From a bacterium (lineage in GTDB: Bacteria; Patescibacteriota; Patescibacteriia; Veblenbacterales; UBA10138), in contig JAGVEX010000020.1 in assembly GCA_020057885.1 (NCBI GenBank), positions 1 to 57,175 of the forward strand: a stretch of 57,175 nt of DNA, written 5' to 3'. Of this stretch, positions 3,008 to 11,582 are shown piece by piece. Numbering within the stretch: the stretch's first letter is position 1; each line of letters begins with the position of its first letter. A program made the translations under genes and the position numbers. The notes below the pieces were generated by a model. It saw only the letters and a program-made list of their open reading frames with translations. It was not told the origin of the DNA and searched no databases.

Positions 3008-3149
3008 CCTGCCTACCGGATTCCGGCGAGCTCAATCGAGTCGTAGGCAGGAATCCTAATATCTAATGTCTAAATATTATAGGAATTATAAATTTATGAT
3101 TTGGGATTTATGATTTGTTTAGGATTTAGGGTTTCGAATTTAGGATTTT
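3008..3149. repeat. Composite element copy B: long GC-closed hairpin (3008-3051) plus AT-rich palindromic repeat (3052-3149)
   Basis: cctgcctac...gtaggcagg encloses 26 nt. It is followed by aatcctaatatctaatgtctaaatattataggaattataaatttatgatttgggatttatgatttgtttaggatttagg. The element shares gatttgtttaggatttag and the tataggaRttataaatttatRatttgggattt core with copy A. Confidence 0.7.
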
Positions 3150-3699
3150 ATAATTGTCCCAGCAGTTTTTTTAGTTCTTGCAAAGCGCGGTGCAGAATAA
3201 CGCGCGTGGCTGCTGGTGACTTGTTAATAATTATAGCTATCTCGTGCGGCTTTAAACCTTCCACATAAGCGAGTACTACTACTTCTTGCCATTCATCTTT
3301 TAATTTAGTAAGCGCACTTTCAATATCTCGTAAGCTCAAACGCATTTCAGGGCTAAGCTGGCCAGGGGCGTGGGTGGCACCAATATCAATCGCCTCTTCC
3401 AGTGACAGTGTTTTTTGTTCACTGCGATAATGATCAGCAATTAAGTTGCGTGCTACCTGATAAAGATAAGCTCGCAAATTTTTAACGCGCGCCTCATTAT
3501 TTTGGGTTAGATACTGCCACAGCTTTAAAAAAAGCTCCGAAGTAATATCTTGCGCCAACTCTTGAGTGCGCACGCGAAATGCCACAAACCGGAACAACGA
3601 ATCAACATAGGTGTCGTACACCGTGGCAAAGGCTTGCTGGTCGCCATGCTTGATTTTTAAAAGCAGAATCTCCTCCTCGATCCTGCGTGTTAATGACAT
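3148..3699 (-). CDS. ECF-type RNA polymerase sigma-70 family factor
   Basis: 183 aa. Region-2-like FATVYDTYVDSLFRFVAFRV...DITSELFLKLW and region-4-like VVVLAYVEGLKPHEIAIIINKSPAATRVILHRALQELKK. Confidence 0.9.
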   Translation of the reverse strand: MSLTRRIEEEILLLKIKHGDQQAFATVYDTYVDSLFRFVAFRVRTQELAQDITSELFLKLWQYLTQNNEARVKNLRAYLYQVARNLIADHYRSEQKTLSLEEAIDIGATHAPGQLSPEMRLSLRDIESALTKLKDEWQEVVVLAYVEGLKPHEIAIIINKSPAATRVILHRALQELKKLLGQL

Positions 3700-3704
3700 A
3701 TAAG

Positions 3705-3729
3705 TAGACGAGATAATGTATTAAACGTT
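3705..3729 (-). promoter_or_regulatory. Candidate ECF-type autoregulated promoter (AAC-N16-CGTCTA)
   Basis: The minus strand reads gtAACgtttaatacattatctCGTCTActtatATG. This is the AAC / CGTC spacing typical of ECF promoters. The -10-like element ends 5 nt before the ATG, which implies a near-leaderless mRNA. Confidence 0.35.
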
Positions 3730-4074
3730 ACACCACATGACTGCTACTTTAACTATTTTAGGCCGTTTTGGCAAGTGGCAAAAATAGGGCTCTGGATGGA
3801 CTACCTTGGTTTTAAACACTAATTTTAGGCTTAAAACACACATAAAATAGGTATGTTTATCTATTTGTGTATAAAATCATTACATATATAACGAATTATT
3901 TAGGCAATACATTATATGACGAATTATATATTGTTATATATCAAATTTAGTCTAAGTTGACTCTTTTAGCCCTTTATTTACCCCTGTATTTATTTATGAT
4001 TATTACCTATTTTTATTTATGTCTATTACCTATTTTTTATCATATTTATTATACTTTTCTTAATTATATTGACT

Positions 4075-4100
4075 GAAAGTATACACTAGTGTATACTTTC
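4075..4100. promoter_or_regulatory. Perfect 26-bp palindrome, candidate operator
   Basis: GAAAGTATACACT|AGTGTATACTTTC, with 13+13 nt perfectly complementary. It lies in the 570-nt AT-rich gap about 170 nt upstream of the HTH gene. Confidence 0.5.
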
Positions 4101-4269
4101 AATATATATACATGATGTGTAATATAAATAAACAAGATGCTTGTCTAAATATTTATCCTAATAAAAATTCAACTAACAAAACTGTAGCTAATAATTTATA
4201 AAACCATCCAACGCGATCTCAGTTTATACTCATTAAGTTATCCACAACCATTTCTTATCCCCTACCACT

Positions 4270-4536
4270 ATGGCGACACTAATTAGAATTTCCATCAGCG
4301 AAGCCTCACGGCTTTTTGGCGTCTCGCCTAAAACTATCCGCTTAGCTATAAGGTTCGGCCAAATTACTTATGTAGTGGTACGCGGCAGATATAAACTCAA
4401 TTTTGAAAGCGTGCTAACTTGGTCGCAAGCCTCCACGCGGCGAAGGAATATTTTTCAAAAATCCGGCCTAGGACAATATGCCGAGCAATGGAAAATCCGC
4501 AACCGCAAATACTCCCCTCACCCACCAACGGAATAA
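4270..4536 (+). CDS. Helix-turn-helix DNA-binding protein (excisionase/MerR-like HTH)
   Basis: 88 aa. ISISEASRLFGVSPKTIRLAIRFGQITYVVVRGRYKL matches the excisionase-family HTH pattern. No clear Shine-Dalgarno sequence. Confidence 0.7.
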   Translation: MATLIRISISEASRLFGVSPKTIRLAIRFGQITYVVVRGRYKLNFESVLTWSQASTRRRNIFQKSGLGQYAEQWKIRNRKYSPHPPTE

Positions 4537-4635
4537 AATCCTCAATAGTATACAATGAATTTATTTAACCTTAATTAATTTGTATATCACTCACTACTTC
4601 TTCTATTTAGATGTATTTTGTTGTAAAATTAAATT

Positions 4636-5574
4636 ATGAAAATTAACCATATAAAAATTCGGCTATTAAAGAAAAGGCTGCTTTGGCTTAAACATGAACA
4701 TTTCAAACCAGCGCTTAGTGGCACACACCATAGTGTTGTAATTTCTCAAAATTACGTGATACGAGAGCGGAAAGATAGGCCGGAACTGATACGGCAAGAA
4801 GCAAGGTTCTTACAACAACTCCATCATCCATTAATCCCAAAGATTATTTGGGTAGGAAAAGTTGGACAATCTACTATAATGGTTGAAAATTATATACCTG
4901 GTATTACGCTTGATAAACACTGGAAGCAGTTATCACGAGTTGCTCAATCTCATATTGTAGGTCAGGTGCTAGAATTCCTAAAGTTTCTACGGCAGAATAC
5001 CACACGTTTAACTTATTCGGTGGCAACCAGTAAAACATACCCTAATTTTACAAATTACCTTACACAACAAATCGCTCAACACACTAAGTTGATTAAAAAA
5101 TGCAAGCCAGCCCGTGCGTTGCTTGAAAAAATTAACGCGGTAATTACTGATTCCGCCCTGCTCAAACTGTTTATAACTAAGCCTATCATAGTGCATGGTG
5201 ATCTTATTAATCACAACTTATTAACCGACGGAAAAAACCTGACCGGTGTACTGGATTTTGAACTAGCCTTATTTGGCGACCGAGATTATGATATATGTCG
5301 GTTGTTCTACTACCAAGAATGCGCAATAGCTTATCACGAACAAGGTAAGGACCCACATTTTGAAGCCACCTATATGAAAAATCTCACAAGTGCTATTATC
5401 AAGAGTACTCTTATTAAGAATCTGGATAAATTTTGGAAAAAATATCAATTTATACGAGCCTTCTTCATACTCGGTGCTTTAGCTTGGGCGGTTAATTCAG
5501 ACAAGCCACAAAAAAATATCAAGGAGCTCGAGATATTGTGGAATAAAAATAGGGTTAAACGAATACACGCTTAA
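4636..5574 (+). CDS. Aminoglycoside-phosphotransferase (APH)/protein-kinase-like fold phosphotransferase
   Basis: 312 aa. Catalytic-loop-like VHGDLINHNLL and DFG-like VLDFELALFGDRDYD motifs. Confidence 0.85.
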   Translation: MKINHIKIRLLKKRLLWLKHEHFKPALSGTHHSVVISQNYVIRERKDRPELIRQEARFLQQLHHPLIPKIIWVGKVGQSTIMVENYIPGITLDKHWKQLSRVAQSHIVGQVLEFLKFLRQNTTRLTYSVATSKTYPNFTNYLTQQIAQHTKLIKKCKPARALLEKINAVITDSALLKLFITKPIIVHGDLINHNLLTDGKNLTGVLDFELALFGDRDYDICRLFYYQECAIAYHEQGKDPHFEATYMKNLTSAIIKSTLIKNLDKFWKKYQFIRAFFILGALAWAVNSDKPQKNIKELEILWNKNRVKRIHA

Positions 5575-5577
5575 CCC
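5552..5577 (-). terminator. Intrinsic terminator of the rSAM-peptide operon, embedded in the 3' end of the convergent kinase gene
   Basis: The minus strand reads GGGTTAA-gcgtgtattcg-TTAACCC followed by TATTTTTATT. It begins 12 nt after the stop of the small ORF. Confidence 0.6.
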
Positions 5578-5588
5578 CACGATTGTAG

Positions 5589-5684
5589 TTACTTACAACC
5601 AGTTCGTTTACCAGGGAACGATGCCCCTGAAACCAAGGATATTACCTTGGTGATTTTGATCTTTTTGATCTCGATCTTTTTCAC
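5589..5684 (-). CDS. Candidate RiPP precursor peptide, 31 aa: (M)KKIEIKKIKITKVISLVSGASFPGKRTGCK
   Basis: Below the ORF-track length cutoff. AAAGGAGGTGA Shine-Dalgarno, 9-nt spacer, GTG start at 5684, and an in-frame TGA two codons upstream. The start lies 39 nt downstream of the rSAM/SPASM stop codon, and a terminator follows. An overlapping 28-codon frame is also open (see findings). Confidence 0.5.
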   Translation of the reverse strand: MKKIEIKKIKITKVISLVSGASFPGKRTGCK

Positions 5685-5723
5685 TTGTTTTCACCTCCTT
5701 TCATAAGGTACATATTTGGATGA

Positions 5724-7157
5724 TCAGCTACCTATGGCAGAGTTATGTGACCGAATATATTCAACCGCTAACGCTTCAGTGACTAAGCGATAAAAATCAC
5801 ACATATCAGCAAATAGCTTTTGTCGCTTTTCTCCAACAGCCCGTGCCGTTACCTCCCTTGTTACATGACACTGACCACCGCATGGCCCCTCAATAATACA
5901 CCCTAAACAATATTCATCGGTTCCGGGGAAACGGTCCTTAACTATTTTGAACAAGCCACCTGTTTCTTGAAACATCTGATTAAAGTTATCAATATGCCCT
6001 ATGGGTGTAGTGGTATGGCTACATATTTTAATACTACCATCAACATTGAATTCAAGTGCTCTTCCCTCAGCAGCGGCACAAAAAGCATGGTTCCCTGTCA
6101 ACAAGCTTTCACTGGTAAGGTTTCGAAAAACACTGTCCCAAGTGCCAAAAAAATCAATGTTCTTATTGTTGGCATACTTTTTGAAGCGAATGAGTTTGTC
6201 TATCCTCGACGTTAATGGAATATCGACTAAGCTAATAAGATCATAATCGAAAGCGATTGATGTCATGCCCCTATTCGCTGCCAGATCAATAATATCAATG
6301 TCAATGAGGTCAAAGTTACCATTTGTTACTGTGATACTAAAACCGTCCAATGGATAACCAATTTCTTCTAAAAGATCAAACTTTTCCAATATGCGGTTAA
6401 AGGTACCTTTGCCCCCTTTAGTTAAACGAATTGCGTCATTAGCTCTTGAGGTACCGTCGAGTGATGTAGCGATACGTATTTGATATCTTTTAAACGCTTC
6501 AGCAATATCCCTCGTCATTAGTACCAAGTTAGTATTGATGGTGAATTCAAAAGTTAAGTCGTGCATTTCTTCACAATAGTGAATGATTTTTTCGATCACT
6601 AGCCAATTGAACAACGGCTCAGCATTTCCAAAATGGACTTTGCAAAGCGTATGTCCATTTTCTCTCATTAAAGCTGTGTAATGATCTATACATTTTTTAG
6701 CTATCTCCCAACTCATGTTGAGCTGTTTTACTGGCCTCTGGTACACGGAGAGAATTGTGTTAGTATTACCCGAAGGTTGAAAATGGAGACAATGAGCACA
6801 CCCAAAATTACAAAAATCACTAATTGCGAGTCCCATTCGATCAATTGTCTGTCTGGTGTTGACTACGGATAAATGCCGAGCTTTTTGCTTTTGCAAAAAC
6901 TCTTTCTCGTCGAAGCCTGGTTCAATGAGAAAAAAGATGCTAGCAAATTCTTGGATAGTATTTTTTGGATTACCATCACACATTTCAATAATTTCTTTTT
7001 CGGTTCTTGGTTGTTTGAAAAAATTTAAGAATCGCAAACCTTCATGGCTTACAATTTGGGGATTACCATACAATGTATGATACACCATCGCCAAGTTTGA
7101 TCTCGGATCGAATATGGTGTGTATATTCGGAGACAATTTATATTGTTTTATTGCCAT
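5724..7157 (-). CDS. Radical SAM/SPASM-domain peptide-modifying enzyme with N-terminal PqqD/RRE-like domain
   Basis: 477 aa. The CNFGCAHC motif (C116-X3-C120-X2-C123) is present. The C-terminal SPASM pattern is C-X13-G-X4-C (CAAAEGRALEFNVDGSIKIC), then C-X2-C-X5-C-X3-C (CLGCIIEGPCGGQC), then a final Cys. The first ~100 aa (IVSHEGLRFLNFFKQPRTEKEIIEMC) look like a winged-helix RRE. Confidence 0.93.
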   Translation of the reverse strand: MAIKQYKLSPNIHTIFDPRSNLAMVYHTLYGNPQIVSHEGLRFLNFFKQPRTEKEIIEMCDGNPKNTIQEFASIFFLIEPGFDEKEFLQKQKARHLSVVNTRQTIDRMGLAISDFCNFGCAHCLHFQPSGNTNTILSVYQRPVKQLNMSWEIAKKCIDHYTALMRENGHTLCKVHFGNAEPLFNWLVIEKIIHYCEEMHDLTFEFTINTNLVLMTRDIAEAFKRYQIRIATSLDGTSRANDAIRLTKGGKGTFNRILEKFDLLEEIGYPLDGFSITVTNGNFDLIDIDIIDLAANRGMTSIAFDYDLISLVDIPLTSRIDKLIRFKKYANNKNIDFFGTWDSVFRNLTSESLLTGNHAFCAAAEGRALEFNVDGSIKICSHTTTPIGHIDNFNQMFQETGGLFKIVKDRFPGTDEYCLGCIIEGPCGGQCHVTREVTARAVGEKRQKLFADMCDFYRLVTEALAVEYIRSHNSAIGS

Positions 7158-7212
7158 GTCTTCGCCTTTCTCTAATTTTGATTGTTAATGAACACTCTAA
7201 ACTGCTCTTATT

Positions 7213-7239
7213 TTTATACTAGTTAGGTATAAATGTCAA
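7213..7239 (-). promoter_or_regulatory. Sigma-70-like promoter of the rSAM operon
   Basis: The minus strand reads TTGACA-tttatacctaactag-TATAAA. The spacer is 15 nt, or 17 nt if the -10 is read as TAAAAA. It lies about 60 nt upstream of the ATG; the SD-like sequence is GAAAGG. Confidence 0.5.
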
Positions 7240-7307
7240 GAGCGTGGCCCTCACTGGTTTACTCACTCAGAGCAATCAACTATGAAGGTAAAATAATATT
7301 ATAAAAA

Positions 7308-7330
7308 AGAGCTGATATATTGTCAGCTCT
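7308..7330. terminator. Bidirectional intrinsic terminator
   Basis: agagctga-tatattg-tcagctct, flanked by an A6 run and a T4 run. It ends the transcript of 7344..7550 and insulates the rSAM operon. Confidence 0.7.
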
Positions 7331-7343
7331 TTTTGTAATGGCG

Positions 7344-7550
7344 TTAATATTTTCTACGTTTGGGGGTGTTTTTGTGTATTATCCAAATTCCTATGGCAAT
7401 AAGAGTAAGGGCAATAAAGACTACCCACATAGACCCTTCTGGTATTAAACTGCCGAGTAGATTAAGAGGTATGCACGATACGCCAAGCAAAACTACTAAC
7501 GCCCCAAACGATAAAAATATCGCCTGCTTTATTGATCTGTTTTTATTCAT
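7344..7550 (-). CDS. Small two-TM membrane protein
   Basis: 68 aa with two hydrophobic helices and a basic C-terminus (KNTPKRRKY). It has its own terminator. Confidence 0.6.
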   Translation of the reverse strand: MNKNRSIKQAIFLSFGALVVLLGVSCIPLNLLGSLIPEGSMWVVFIALTLIAIGIWIIHKNTPKRRKY

Positions 7551-7657
7551 TATTTCTCCGTTATTTTAATATATTTCTGTTTTATTTTTGTTACGGAACT
7601 CTATACTAATTCAAAAACAACATTATGTCAATAATGTTAATTATGGATATACAAAAC

Positions 7658-7678
7658 CACCCAGCAAATTGCTGGGTG
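7658..7678 (-). terminator. Intrinsic terminator after 7712..8029
   Basis: cacccagc-aaatt-gctgggtg, followed by GTTTTGT on the minus strand. Confidence 0.65.
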
Positions 7679-7711
7679 AGTTGAGTGAAATTATAAAACT
7701 ATAGTTACTAA

Positions 7712-8029
7712 CTAATAAGCATGGAAACCAAATGGCATTGGATTTTCAAACAGACCACCATCTATGTTCAACCATATAAATAAAAGACAAAAAAATATAA
7801 TAATTAAAAATATAACTTTGGTTGGTAATTTAAAAATTCTATAAAAAAAGAAAAAGCTAACTAAAAAATAAAGAAGATATGACCAAAGAGCCCAGGATGT
7901 ACCACCAATATCGAAGGATGAAAAATTTGTTACTTCACTTATAAATATTAATAAAAAAGTTCCTAAAAAACTAACAATCAAAAAACTAACATATCTAAAA
8001 ACTATTTTTATCGGCTCATTTAATTTCAT
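7712..8029 (-). CDS. Small polytopic membrane protein
   Basis: 105 aa with about 3 TM helices. It overlaps the end of the 1188-aa gene by 14 nt, so translational coupling is likely. Confidence 0.6.
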   Translation of the reverse strand: MKLNEPIKIVFRYVSFLIVSFLGTFLLIFISEVTNFSSFDIGGTSWALWSYLLYFLVSFFFFYRIFKLPTKVIFLIIIFFCLLFIWLNIDGGLFENPMPFGFHAY

Positions 8030-11000
8030 AATTAACGTCTCCTTTATTTGTTAAAATTCTAATTAATTTTAATCCATTTAATTTCTCTTTAATCCTGCCC
8101 AGTACAACATCTTTTCCTGTAACCCTAGTAATATTTTTTCTAAAATCCCAATTAGCTGAAATTGTAAAATCATTTTTAACCATTATTGACTGAACTAATC
8201 TGTTTAAAGCGCCTTTTTTATCATAACCCCAATAAAAATTAAAACGGCTATTTTTGCTGATTGGAACGTTAATTCCATTATACTTAATTCCCAACAAAGT
8301 AGCACTAAACAATTTAACTCTGCTACGCTCCTTAAAAATTAATTCTGTAGTATTACCGGCCTCATCAGCAAGAACAACTAAGCCTGGATTATCAACTATG
8401 GTAACGGTTGAAAGATTATCAATTCCACTAATCACAATGTCTTTCAATTGTGAGCTAAATACTAAACTGGCCTCGGGCGGTGTTTTATCTATTTTAATAA
8501 TCTTAGACTGTTTTTGCTCAGCGTTTCCTGCTTTATCTATTGAGCGATAAAATAAGGAATTACTCCCCTCTTTATTAACTATAAATGGATTTTGATAGTT
8601 AAGCCAACTGGCGCCGTCATCCAAACTGTACTCAGTTTTTAATACTCCAGAATTATCATCTATGGCTATTAAATTAATCGCGACATCCGATTTATACCAA
8701 CCATTATTGCTTGTTGTCCCGCTAAATACTGCCGTAGTAAAGGGGGAAGTTAAATCTTCGCTTTGCGAGGCATTAAGTACAGCGCTGGCTGGCACGGGCT
8801 CAAAATTGCCAGATCCACTAAAATCCAAATTAATTATATTATCGGCGCTGGTACTACTCACCACCATTTCTCCTTTGCTCGCGCTTGTAATGACAATTTT
8901 ATTATAATAAACCGTTTGTGTAACATTGCTATTTTCAATACTTTTCACACGTAAATCAAAATTACCGCTACCTGTAGCCGCCAATTTAATTGTATAGTTT
9001 TGTTCACCATCTGTAGGGATAAAAACAAACTTGTTACCACCAACTTCCTCATAACTTAAACCTGCTATACCTTCCTCTAAGGTATTATTATCCCCTGGTC
9101 CGGTATGATTACCTTGCTCGTCATAAATATGCAGCTCCACTGGACTATGCACTGAAACAAACTTGCCATTTAAAACGCATTGCGTTTTATCTTGAATTAC
9201 ATCAGCTGGTAAAAACAAGCTGTTAACACTGCTGGTAATAATTTGCGTAACCAATTCGCGTACACCGTCTTGGCTTGGCATTTTACCGTGGCTGGCCTTG
9301 GTGTAATAAAAACTATGAGCCTCTGACACGTTTACGGCCGTAGAGCTGCCTAAGGGTACTGTTTTATCGCCTGCGTTCATATACAACAAATACTCACCAT
9401 CGGCAACTGACCCAACTTGAACAATGCCGGAAATGGTAGGAGTGGTACAACCAGAAATATTATAACTATCTATTCCATAACTATTTAAATCCATCAAATC
9501 CAAAGCTGGCGTATGAAAATCAACGCCATCTTGTATGGCCGAAAGATTATATCCACCATTTAACATTAATAGCTGTGTTTCCAAAAAATTTAAAAGTTTA
9601 TGCTCACCTGGGTCGTCCCAAACTGGTGCGGAATAATATCCGCCAAGTTTATTAAAATATTCTTGGCTCGGCAAAAGCTGATACAAACTGTACATATTTT
9701 GGGATATTTTTTTCATCTCATCTGGATTAAGAACTACTGGCACGCCAAATCTATCACCAAACATTAAAGCTTTTAACGCTTTAGGCGCTCCAAGATGCGG
9801 GGTGCCTATAAAAATTAATTTATTAATTTTAGGATTAATATTGTTATTAATGTATTCCTTAGCAATTAATCCGCCCATACTATGGGCTACTAAATCAATT
9901 TTAGGACTACCAGTTTGAGATAAAATTTGATTTATTTTTTCTCGTAACTTTACGCTATTAATTCTGTTATCCAAACGCCAATCGTAAGGAAAGACAAACA
10001 TGTCTATTCCCTCAGAATATTGTTTTATCGTAAACTCATCAACTAAACCATTAAAATAATCATAAGATAATAAGGGAAGGCTACCAATTTGTCTTATAAC
10101 ATCCCCTACAGAAACTTCTGTATCGCTTGGATTACCATTTTCATCCATTGCCAATGGATCCATAAAACTATCGGTAATATCTGTAAACATTTCACCAAAA
10201 TCCATCCACAGGGTATCAGTGCCCTTTTTCATCTCTGTGCCTAAAATTCCCGGGATTAACAAAACTGGCACATTTCTAACCTCAAAAGTTAATTCACCAC
10301 TAACTGGCAAACGTGTAGCAACCTTACCATCACTCGCTTCAAAATGATAATTATAAATCCCCTTACCAAAATATCCAGTTGTAGGGTTATATGAATATTG
10401 CTCGCCGTTTGAATAAACGCCATCCTGACCAGTATCTTTTACCATCTCGTGAGATATCTCATTTACCACAACTCTAAAATAGGAAGGCGTGTCATTATTG
10501 GCATCTGTATAAGTTGTCTTAAAAACCGGCGCGCTGGGTACAAAGGCAATATTTGGCTCTACACCATCAATAATATAACCCTCTGTGTTAACATAAGATA
10601 ATACTGGGGACTGATTAGGCGGCACTTTACCTGTCCAGGGATCGTAAAGTAAATTGCCATAAATTTTATCACCCGTACCGCCAGGGTTGCCATATATAGT
10701 AGGCCCTGTATCACTTCCCCACCAATTATTACGCGCGTCTACTAAAGCATAACTAGAGTGGGCGTTAATAGCATAGATTGAATTATTGAATAATTTGCTA
10801 CCACTTATGCTCCATGGTACGGGAGTATAACTAACAATACCTCTCTTGTGATACCTAACCTCTGAATCTATTAACTGAAGGTTTGAACTGCCTCCAATTG
10901 ATATAGCCGTATCATAACTTTTTTCAATAATACTAGAGTTGATAGATATGCTGGAATTTTCTATATGCAAAAAATTAAAATCCGTAGTAATAAAATAAAT

Positions 11001-11582
11001 ACCATTAAAATCAGTCACATAATACCCACCATAGCGCAAAATAGTGTGAGTCAAAACCGAACCGGTTGAGCCGTTAAAATAAAATCCACTCCAATTACCG
11101 GGCGCTGGAGTGTAAATACCATTATCATTATTACTATCGCCACCAAAACTATCATCAAGATATGAGGTAAAAACTATTGGCAGACCAGCTGTGCCTTGGG
11201 CAACCAAATTGCCATTTATTACAAGCCTACCGCCGCCCATAAATTTAACCACCACGCCAGGCTCAACTGTTAAAGTGGAGATAATCTTTACTACGCCATT
11301 ACCATGTACGATGTAGGGACTTTGAATCATGGTCCAGGTGGTAGGCGTGCTAATAGTAATCGGAGTGTAAATATGAGTCGGCGGAGCCGCTATAACCGCC
11401 CTAGCGCCAACTAAAAACCTTACCGCCGAGGCAAGGTTTGGTGCAAAATTTGATAAATTGTTTGGCTCTATTTGCCCTAGAAATAAAAACAGCCCGACGA
11501 CAAACCAACCAGTTAAACGGGCTAAAACTTGAACGCCATTCCAACGTTCCCTCCGATTCCAGTGATTAGATTCTTGTGACAT
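8016..11582 (-). CDS. Large secreted multidomain protein: right-handed beta-helix, LCAT/PGAP1-like alpha/beta-hydrolase (lipase/acyltransferase), Ig-like C-terminal domains
   Basis: 1188 aa with an N-terminal TM/signal segment. Beta-helix-type repeats are followed by NNWWGSDTGP. A PVLLIPGILGTEM start and the DLVAHSMGGL nucleophile elbow (GXSXG) resemble LCAT-family lipases. The segment GWYKSDVAINLIAIDDNSGVLKTEYSLDDGASW...YRSIDKAGNAE resembles an OmpL47/chitobiase-C type Ig-like module. The SD is AAGGGGG. Confidence 0.9.
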   Translation of the reverse strand: MSQESNHWNRRERWNGVQVLARLTGWFVVGLFLFLGQIEPNNLSNFAPNLASAVRFLVGARAVIAAPPTHIYTPITISTPTTWTMIQSPYIVHGNGVVKIISTLTVEPGVVVKFMGGGRLVINGNLVAQGTAGLPIVFTSYLDDSFGGDSNNDNGIYTPAPGNWSGFYFNGSTGSVLTHTILRYGGYYVTDFNGIYFITTDFNFLHIENSSISINSSIIEKSYDTAISIGGSSNLQLIDSEVRYHKRGIVSYTPVPWSISGSKLFNNSIYAINAHSSYALVDARNNWWGSDTGPTIYGNPGGTGDKIYGNLLYDPWTGKVPPNQSPVLSYVNTEGYIIDGVEPNIAFVPSAPVFKTTYTDANNDTPSYFRVVVNEISHEMVKDTGQDGVYSNGEQYSYNPTTGYFGKGIYNYHFEASDGKVATRLPVSGELTFEVRNVPVLLIPGILGTEMKKGTDTLWMDFGEMFTDITDSFMDPLAMDENGNPSDTEVSVGDVIRQIGSLPLLSYDYFNGLVDEFTIKQYSEGIDMFVFPYDWRLDNRINSVKLREKINQILSQTGSPKIDLVAHSMGGLIAKEYINNNINPKINKLIFIGTPHLGAPKALKALMFGDRFGVPVVLNPDEMKKISQNMYSLYQLLPSQEYFNKLGGYYSAPVWDDPGEHKLLNFLETQLLMLNGGYNLSAIQDGVDFHTPALDLMDLNSYGIDSYNISGCTTPTISGIVQVGSVADGEYLLYMNAGDKTVPLGSSTAVNVSEAHSFYYTKASHGKMPSQDGVRELVTQIITSSVNSLFLPADVIQDKTQCVLNGKFVSVHSPVELHIYDEQGNHTGPGDNNTLEEGIAGLSYEEVGGNKFVFIPTDGEQNYTIKLAATGSGNFDLRVKSIENSNVTQTVYYNKIVITSASKGEMVVSSTSADNIINLDFSGSGNFEPVPASAVLNASQSEDLTSPFTTAVFSGTTSNNGWYKSDVAINLIAIDDNSGVLKTEYSLDDGASWLNYQNPFIVNKEGSNSLFYRSIDKAGNAEQKQSKIIKIDKTPPEASLVFSSQLKDIVISGIDNLSTVTIVDNPGLVVLADEAGNTTELIFKERSRVKLFSATLLGIKYNGINVPISKNSRFNFYWGYDKKGALNRLVQSIMVKNDFTISANWDFRKNITRVTGKDVVLGRIKEKLNGLKLIRILTNKGDVNYEIK

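Follow-up and report, generated by a model that had tools for sequence, protein, structure and literature searches.

Organization of the locus

The window analysed here is the whole 57,175-nt stretch of contig JAGVEX010000020.1 (assembly GCA_020057885.1), which comes from a bacterium of the Patescibacteria. On its minus strand it carries a gene for a radical S-adenosylmethionine (SAM)/SPASM enzyme and, after it, a small open reading frame (ORF); a kinase gene of the APH family converges on them from the plus strand (Table 1). A sequence-only reading of the window, made earlier, had taken the enzyme and the small ORF for a self-contained pair of a maturase and its short substrate, that is, for a pathway of a ribosomally produced and post-translationally modified peptide (RiPP). 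Both genes are indeed present where that reading placed them, they are conserved together, and the best sequence and structure matches of the enzyme are RiPP maturases, which supports the RiPP assignment. However, the pair is not the whole unit, as in the window's clade the convergent kinase is also a part of the module.

The stop codon of the enzyme gene and the GTG of the small ORF are separated by a 39-nt spacer. The GTG start and the 31 codons proposed by the sequence-only reading stand, but its 39-nt gap is the distance from the stop codon to the GTG; the Shine-Dalgarno sequence AAAGGAGGTGA itself starts 22 nt past the stop. In most homologous loci AAGGAGGTGA precedes an ATG at equal spacing.

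Table 1. Features of the module and of its borders in the window
Feature	Position	Strand	Description
SPASM maturase gene	5724..7157	(-)	477 aa, RRE / radical SAM / SPASM
Precursor peptide gene	5589..5684	(-)	GTG start, 31 codons, MKKIEIKKIKITKVISLVSGASFPGKRTGCK
Shine-Dalgarno AAAGGAGGTGA	5701-5691 (5691..5701)	(-)	6 nt before precursor GTG
Double hairpin and U-tract	5549..5600	(-)	-24.4 kcal/mol, z = -5.4
APH-family kinase gene, convergent	4636..5574	(+)	312 aa
Promoter-like site, TTGACA ... A/T-rich -10	7210..7239	(-)	Consensus match only
Hairpin terminating the preceding gene (68-aa membrane protein)	~7304-7334	(-)	-14.4 kcal/mol, z = -7.3

The small ORF is conserved together with the enzyme

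Loci of the family were collected from a genome scan of species representatives, a metagenome scan and look-ups of single homologues, which gave about 45 loci, 41 of them with enough flanking DNA. The metagenome scan contributed eight true members; its remaining hits are distant radical SAM enzymes (21-31% identity) and were left out, as were loci L035-L080 of the genome scan for the same reason.

A short ORF homologous to that of the window adjoins the enzyme gene in all 41 loci with enough flank, as the sequence-only reading had anticipated for an ORF with a conserved C-terminal half. Conservation across some 40 loci is more than chance would give. Among the 19 members of the window's clade the ORF has 31 codons and a stop at a fixed position, which is written TAA, TAG or TGA, and residues G25, K26, R27, T28, C30 and K31 are invariant while being encoded by 2-4 different codons each. 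The precursor thus consists of an amphipathic leader, in which K and I alternate, and the invariant C-terminal core GKRTxCK. In the last seven codons the synonymous differences (pS) amount to 0.64 and the nonsynonymous ones (pN) to 0.04, which gives a pN/pS of 0.06, compared with 0.31 for the whole ORF in the same 19 members. An overlapping ORF in an alternative frame serves as an internal control; its length varies from 12 to 46 aa in the homologues, and the candidate gene at 5608-5694 in that frame was rejected on this ground. Judged by these codon patterns, the C-terminal motif is under strong purifying selection and the 31-aa peptide is a real gene selected at the protein level. We consider it very probable that the peptide is the substrate of the enzyme.

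A profile search with the peptide retrieved 29 peptide clusters that had already been called as genes, all of them unnamed and free of Pfam domains; several lie on contigs that match the size of the contig of the enzyme or the kinase. No NCBIfam model matched any of three peptide variants. Two loci (L027 and L029) contain two tandem copies of the precursor, a common arrangement of RiPP precursor genes.

The enzyme is a sister of the cyclopropyl synthases

The radical SAM motif CNFGCAHC (CX3CX2C; C116, C120 and C123) and the complete SPASM signature of seven cysteines (C360, C379, C417, C420, C426, C430 and C453, including CX2CX5CX3C) are present, as the sequence-only reading had it. All three radical SAM and seven SPASM cysteines are unchanged in 32 aligned homologues and in all four subfamilies described below, and the SPASM cysteines align with those of TigE. 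PF04055 is the sole Pfam domain of the enzyme (38.9 bits against a cut-off of 29.5); the Pfam SPASM and PqqD models give no match to it at E <= 1. The assignment of the SPASM domain and of the RiPP recognition element (RRE) therefore rests on the conservation of the cysteines and on structure.

The AlphaFold model, built on the 32-member alignment (pLDDT 89, pTM 0.87), comprises N-terminal strands and three helices (residues 5-73), then the barrel and the C-terminal SPASM region. It aligns with TigE over 469 columns, and its N-terminal domain superposes on the RRE of TigE. In the model the N-terminal domain of the enzyme thus has the RRE fold, so that the peptide-recognition element proposed from the sequence is borne out by the predicted structure and the TigE alignment, not by Pfam.

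An NCBIfam scan matched 44 families, none at its curated cut-off, and those with the best scores are without exception peptide maturases of the radical SAM/SPASM type: PapB (NF047865, 91.8 bits against a cut-off of 340), the RumMC sactipeptide maturase (NF035951, 81.5 against 720, covering residues 84-265 only) and the SCIFF maturase (TIGR03974, 73.1 against 425). Several matches span residues ~20 to 431 and so take in the RRE. Quinohemoprotein and sulfatase maturases are among the weaker ones. The sequence-only reading had allowed for the enzyme falling into a non-peptide family, such as that of the anaerobic sulfatase-maturating enzymes (anSME); the anSME model (TIGR03942) reaches 59.1 bits against 349, and the enzyme was not placed there.

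TigE (8VPO) is the top match both in the profile search (E 2e-59, full length) and in the Foldseek search of the PDB (template modelling score, TM, 0.81-0.86), with 22% identity. CteB follows at a profile E of 2e-21 and a TM of ~0.6, and after these two the structural matches are ChlB, SuiB and anSME. TigE is a methyl-cyclopropylglycine synthase, residues 3-85 of which form the RRE in the crystal structure; the Tyr of its GYW motif ligates auxiliary cluster I, and the motif is reported as unique to cyclopropyl synthases and required in them (PMC10878394). The enzyme of the window has G338-T339-W340 at this position. Of 120 homologues, 111 have GTW as the equivalent motif and one has GVW; by subfamily, B has GSW and the other three, A, C and D, have GTW. 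Since GYW is absent, the family lacks the defining feature of cyclopropyl synthases, and we conclude that it is their sister.

A database search with the enzyme yielded 248 clusters of related proteins, of which the best 120 are 45-76% identical to it, typically 470-490 aa long and without a specific name; nearly all those with a named source are from Patescibacteria. The database copy of the window's enzyme (P0001) has 454 aa and starts at Met24; residues 5-23 are conserved in the homologues, which favours the 477-aa start at 7157. Two family-specific cysteines, Cys156 and Cys195, were considered as extra cluster ligands and rejected, as subfamily B has neither and subfamily D is without Cys156.

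In 60 of 88 full-length homologues (P0002-P0099) there is a Cys within the last five residues, mostly in a conserved tail like ...RSNGxxxVGNRQTCTL, which is similar to the precursor core (R-x-T-C). In the window the enzyme ends about 15 codons early, and this accounts for the extra 22 nt before the Shine-Dalgarno sequence. Because TigE's C-terminal tail sits in its own RRE cleft (PMC10878394), the tail of the homologues may, by analogy, be a pseudo-substrate or an auto-inhibitor.

The maturase is split into two ORFs in four loci (L006:3555-5204, L017:4001-5471, L166:4077-5547 and L030:4001-6746), the interruption in Dolichospermum circinale amounting to ~1.3 kb; the split maturases could reflect decay of the module or assembly errors. 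In four other loci a distant second radical SAM/SPASM gene adjoins the module (L002:5794-6822, L008:1564-3006, L009:7152-8459 and L164:1063-2361), the last one accompanied by a 51-aa ORF at 889-1044. These second genes suggest small islands of RiPP genes in these bacteria.

Four subfamilies share the enzyme and the peptide

The family divides into four subfamilies (Table 2). The enzyme and the peptide are kept in all of them and across several phyla, while all other neighbours change. Common to the precursors of all four are a stretch of alternating basic and aliphatic residues (KIxIKKIKI, KIKVSL and similar), a single Cys 1-4 residues from the C-terminus and basic residues 3-4 positions before it; the Cys is the only core residue that all four have in common. 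The peptide core stays invariant down to 48% enzyme identity. The exporters and the GNAT acetyltransferase of the sister subfamilies were confirmed by Pfam. In subfamily D the BT1/MFS transporter gene is located downstream in two loci and the gene of the NB-ARC-type ATPase upstream in five. The reduced-genome setting proposed by the sequence-only reading fits the Patescibacteria, but cyanobacteria and an ANME-1 archaeon carry the module as well.

Table 2. Subfamilies of the module (MAG, metagenome-assembled genome; MFS, major facilitator superfamily)
Subfamily	Sources	Precursor	Other neighbours
A	Patescibacteria, the window among them	30-41 aa, downstream, ends GKRTxCK	Convergent APH-like kinase
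B	Saccharibacteria, Absconditabacterales, MAGs labelled Peribacteria	20-21 aa, MRKVKxEIxxSMxGKRTxCK, in some cases as a tandem pair	Convergent MFS transporter (PF07690)
C	MAGs of Patescibacteria type, one MAG labelled Syntrophomonadaceae	Ends (G)W(A/M)KKGKDAxC plus 1-2 residues	GNAT acetyltransferase (3/4 loci)
D	Cyanobacteria, ANME-1 archaeon, one metagenome contig	34-60 aa, encoded upstream of the enzyme, C-terminus R(V/A)TCQRR(S/N)	BT1/MFS transporter, NB-ARC-type ATPase

In L027, L029 and L033 the MFS transporter (~5400-6900) is a single ORF only under genetic code 25, in which TGA is a sense codon; the precursors of these loci end with TAA or TAG and hence are still valid under this code. 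Six assemblies (L001, L002, L008, L012, L018 and L020) bear the label 'uncultured Gammaproteobacteria'. Their module is that of the Patescibacteria, and these bins are probably mislabelled.

The convergent kinase

The product of the gene at 4636-5574 matches Pfam APH (PF01636) with 64.7 bits against a cut-off of 23.2 and belongs to a tight family of ~310-315 aa, in which the catalytic residues H187-G188-D189, H193-N194, D207 and E209 of the HGDxIxHN loop and the DxE motif are invariant. Structurally it comes nearest to the antibiotic-resistance kinases APH(2'')-Ia, APH(4)-Ia and APH(3')-Ia, at TM ~0.5 and 13-16% identity. The best of the NCBIfam aminoglycoside-resistance equivalogs gives 29 bits against the 205 of APH(3'), so the cut-off is not reached.

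A kinase homologue convergent to the peptide is found in 16 of the 16 enzyme-seeded loci of subfamily A that include downstream DNA; the other genes flanking these loci are not conserved. The reverse check, seeded with the kinase, found a 31- or 36-aa ORF and a maturase directly adjacent to it on three of three long contigs. In addition, two independent protein searches gave 31 pairs of maturase and kinase homologues on contigs of exactly equal size. Hence, the APH-like kinase belongs to the conserved module in the window's clade, and a functional link between it and the maturase or the peptide appears likely. Phosphorylation of the core Thr by the kinase was considered, and the distribution does not support it: subfamily B has the GKRTxCK core and no kinase.

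Proposed mechanism

We suggest that the module is probably of the RiPP kind, from a radical SAM/SPASM family not yet described, and that it would operate as follows.

Step 1: The N-terminal half of the peptide, with its alternation of K and I, would serve as the leader and pair as a β-strand with the N-terminal RRE of the enzyme, by analogy with CteB. The C-terminal core G-K-R-T-x-C-K would then enter the barrel.

Step 2: Auxiliary cluster I would have three Cys ligands only, with the Tyr ligand of TigE replaced by Thr or Ser, and would thus present an open iron. An open iron is expected at this cluster since the SPASM region has seven cysteines, not eight, and there is no Tyr at position 339. 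In CteB the substrate Cys binds the open iron of auxiliary cluster I, and the invariant Cys of the peptide may bind it in the same manner. The 5'-deoxyadenosyl radical would take a hydrogen from one of the residues 1-4 positions upstream of the Cys, after which a thioether would form, closing a small C-terminal ring with a mass change of -2 Da. That the modification is centred on the Cys is our favoured, if not secure, expectation; that it is specifically a thioether ring we put at slightly below even chances.

Step 3: In the sister subfamilies the product would be exported by the MFS or BT1 transporters. In the window's clade the kinase would instead either phosphorylate the peptide, as a tailoring enzyme, or inactivate a cationic product inside the producer, as a self-protection enzyme. 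The latter is a speculation by analogy, which would fit the likeness of the kinase to resistance kinases and the exporters found elsewhere in the family.

Several points weigh against this mechanism. The assignment of the chemistry is a prediction from sequence and model; the nearest characterized enzyme, TigE, forms C-C bonds and not thioethers; and no acceptor position is conserved across the subfamilies: relative to the Cys at position 0, Thr occupies -2 in A and B, and -1 in D, and C has Ala at -2 and S, T or D at -1. Thr or Ser 339 could interact with the cluster. The conserved module contains no protease for the removal of the leader. As for the kinase, its gene is convergent to the enzyme/peptide pair and hence not co-transcribed with it; subfamilies B, C and D do without it, and since B shares the core, the core chemistry does not depend on the kinase. 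In the kinase model the catalytic loop is of low confidence.

Alternative chemistries

TigE is by far the closest characterized relative of the enzyme, in profile E value as well as in TM, the G-x-W motif is retained at the same position, and alternating Ile/Val is conserved in all subfamilies. These facts speak for a TigE-like reaction, in which a cyclopropane or another C-C bond would be formed on an aliphatic residue (for example, Ile or Val of KIxIKKIKI, or a core side chain) and the Cys would act as a recognition element or a cluster anchor. Nevertheless, the Tyr needed for TigE activity is replaced by Thr or Ser in all members looked at, the precursors are without repeats of the TVGG or TIGSVS type, and the strongest constraint on the peptide falls on the Cys motif rather than on the Ile/Val stretch, where alternating K and I is also what a strand-forming leader is expected to look like. 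We consider such chemistry unlikely.

A marginally smaller chance is given to a modification of the Cys itself or to a small diffusible product, that is, oxidation to formylglycine or thioaldehyde, desulfurization, or a cofactor or signal like pyrroloquinoline quinone (PQQ) or mycofactocin. The core is far more conserved than those of usual antimicrobial RiPPs, resembling in this the cofactor and signalling peptides, anSME-type enzymes occur among the structural relatives, and a universally conserved acceptor residue is absent. However, the anSME substrate motif is missing from the peptide and the anSME score is far under the cut-off. The Cys is followed by 1-4 residues, which makes a mycofactocin-like reaction of a C-terminal carboxylate unlikely; moreover, no downstream genes of a cofactor pathway are conserved, and in two subfamilies the exporters speak for secretion of the peptide.

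That the small ORF is incidental, the enzyme acting on another protein (as with anSME or QhpD) or on a metabolite and the kinase being a neighbour by descent only, is very improbable and already disfavoured: the convergent kinase is transcribed on its own and the weaker NCBIfam matches include quinohemoprotein and sulfatase maturases, but the peptide accompanies the enzyme in four subfamilies and several phyla with all other neighbours changing, purifying selection acts on it at the protein level, the enzyme has its RRE as a fused domain, and there is no sulfatase or amine dehydrogenase gene nearby in the window or among the conserved neighbours.

Comparison with known systems

All generic features of radical SAM/SPASM RiPP systems are present: the CX3CX2C motif, the seven-Cys SPASM signature, the RRE fold and a co-conserved short precursor. 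The module shares with TigE/TvgB (PDB 8VPO; PMC10878394, PMC9062424) the N-terminal RRE, the radical SAM barrel, the seven-Cys SPASM region, the G-x-W at the same position and a short precursor gene beside the enzyme, as well as the C-terminal enzyme tail, which most members of the window's family have. The two differ in the low identity, in the Tyr ligand of auxiliary cluster I, in the accessory genes and in the precursors, which in TigE/TvgB carry repeated Val/Ile motifs such as TVGG or TIGSVS and in the window's family a single C-terminal Cys motif.

The thioether-forming maturases, namely CteB/SCIFF and PapB of ranthipeptides and RumMC of sactipeptides, have the same combination of RRE, radical SAM and SPASM domains, Cys-containing cores and seven SPASM cysteines, which imply an open site on auxiliary cluster I as in CteB; they also provide the top NCBIfam matches. 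Unlike in these systems, the window core has one Cys and not several; the scores are far under the SCIFF, PapB and RumMC cut-offs; neither the CX3D/E pattern nor the six-Cys pattern is present (the SCIFF precursor has six Cys in 45 residues); and the structural similarity to CteB is clearly below that to TigE. The sequence-only reading, which named sacti/ranthipeptides among others, is right as to the SPASM RiPP kind, but the closest characterized relative is a cyclopropyl synthase and no maturase of those two classes.

As in MftA/MftC of mycofactocin and PqqA/PqqE of PQQ, a precursor of very small size, with a C-terminal motif that does not vary and a conserved, not hypervariable, core, is modified by a radical SAM/SPASM enzyme. 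In those systems, however, the RRE is a separate protein, MftB or PqqD, whereas here it is fused; and the window's family has no further conserved pathway genes, a variable number of residues after the Cys and exporters in sister subfamilies. The anSME proteins differ by the score, by the substrate motif C/S-x-P/A-x-R, which the peptide is without, and by the sulfatase, which is not among the conserved neighbours. With APH(2'')-Ia, APH(4)-Ia and APH(3')-Ia, which phosphorylate hydroxyls of polycationic antibiotics, the kinase shares the Pfam APH domain and the HGDxxxxN and DxE motifs; it differs from them in the low identity, TM and NCBIfam score given above and in being linked to a maturase and a peptide.

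The module is thus distinct, by the defining features of each, from all the named families considered: cyclopropyl synthases, PapB, SCIFF, RumMC and anSME. The curated NCBIfam models include none for the enzyme, the peptide or the kinase subfamily. Our literature search, which lay outside subscription journals, found no paper describing the enzyme/peptide/kinase family, although broad atlases of radical SAM RiPPs may list the cluster unnamed; it also found no pairing of an APH-type kinase with a radical SAM RiPP, and the main text of the SPASM-mapping paper mentions no such cluster. The earlier view that the pair belongs to no named class is in line with this.

Meaning of the module

Bacteria of the candidate phyla radiation (CPR) have very small genomes, little recognizable secondary metabolism and almost no experimental biochemistry, and yet a compact module of two or three genes recurs in many of their genomes. 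Its occurrence in CPR bacteria, cyanobacteria and an ANME-1 archaeon is an unusual spread, and the peptide core is unusually fixed.

As a tentative further step, which we think has the odds against it, the clade with G-T/S-W might perform a chemistry new to radical SAM RiPPs on the invariant basic-Thr-Cys motif, with the CPR product phosphorylated by the dedicated APH-like kinase. On this reading the fixed core would speak for a conserved signal, a cofactor or a host-interaction molecule and against a diversifying antibiotic. If true, this would be the first described radical SAM RiPP family of the ultra-small CPR episymbionts, as far as literature searches show. As the nearest relative of the cyclopropyl synthases without the catalytic Tyr, the enzyme provides a natural contrast for how an auxiliary-cluster ligand steers radical SAM chemistry. 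If the kinase is self-protective, the evolution of antibiotic kinases would be tied to peptide products. The system, which consists of a 31-aa peptide with one Cys and one enzyme, is readily testable. We regard the module as a solid lead from genome mining, not as a categorical surprise.

Transcription signals and surroundings

Both terminators named by the sequence-only reading are real, as judged by their z values (Table 1). The hairpin at 7304-7334 is the upstream limit of the enzyme/peptide transcription unit. In the double hairpin at 5549-5600, stem 1 contains the precursor stop codon and stem 2 overlaps the end of the kinase gene; hence, this element is probably a bidirectional terminator. 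The own TTGACA/TATAAA promoter fared worse: the site at 7210-7239 is plausible but no better than chance, with 4 sites of the TTGACA type found against 7.5 expected from shuffles. An Rfam scan of 3500-8200 gave no match.

The AT-rich accessory island suggested earlier is marginal at best. The GC content of the module is 37-38%, in a window whose 1.5-kb bins range from 31 to 45%. With this small drop, and no tRNA genes or flanking direct repeats in the window, the idea of a mobile island is not supported. The remainder of the window consists of housekeeping genes: gyrB, those of PheRS, MetRS, IleRS, ArgRS, ATP synthase subunits, a ClpB-like ATPase and a UvrD-type helicase-nuclease.

A gene at 8016-11582, partly within the stretch where the GC content of the window is lowest (31% in 7501-9000), encodes an 1188-aa protein with an N-terminal hydrophobic segment and an LCAT-type lipase/acyltransferase domain between long flanks; none of the related loci yielded a homologue of it. 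On the other side of the module, an inverted repeat at 4065-4110 (23+23 nt, zero spacer, 87% complementary) is located ~160 nt upstream of a small helix-turn-helix (HTH) gene at 4270-4536 and could be an operator. In locus L005 homologues of this HTH protein, of the extracytoplasmic function (ECF) sigma factor encoded at 3148-3699 and of the DUF5667 protein encoded at 1855-2991 adjoin the kinase too.

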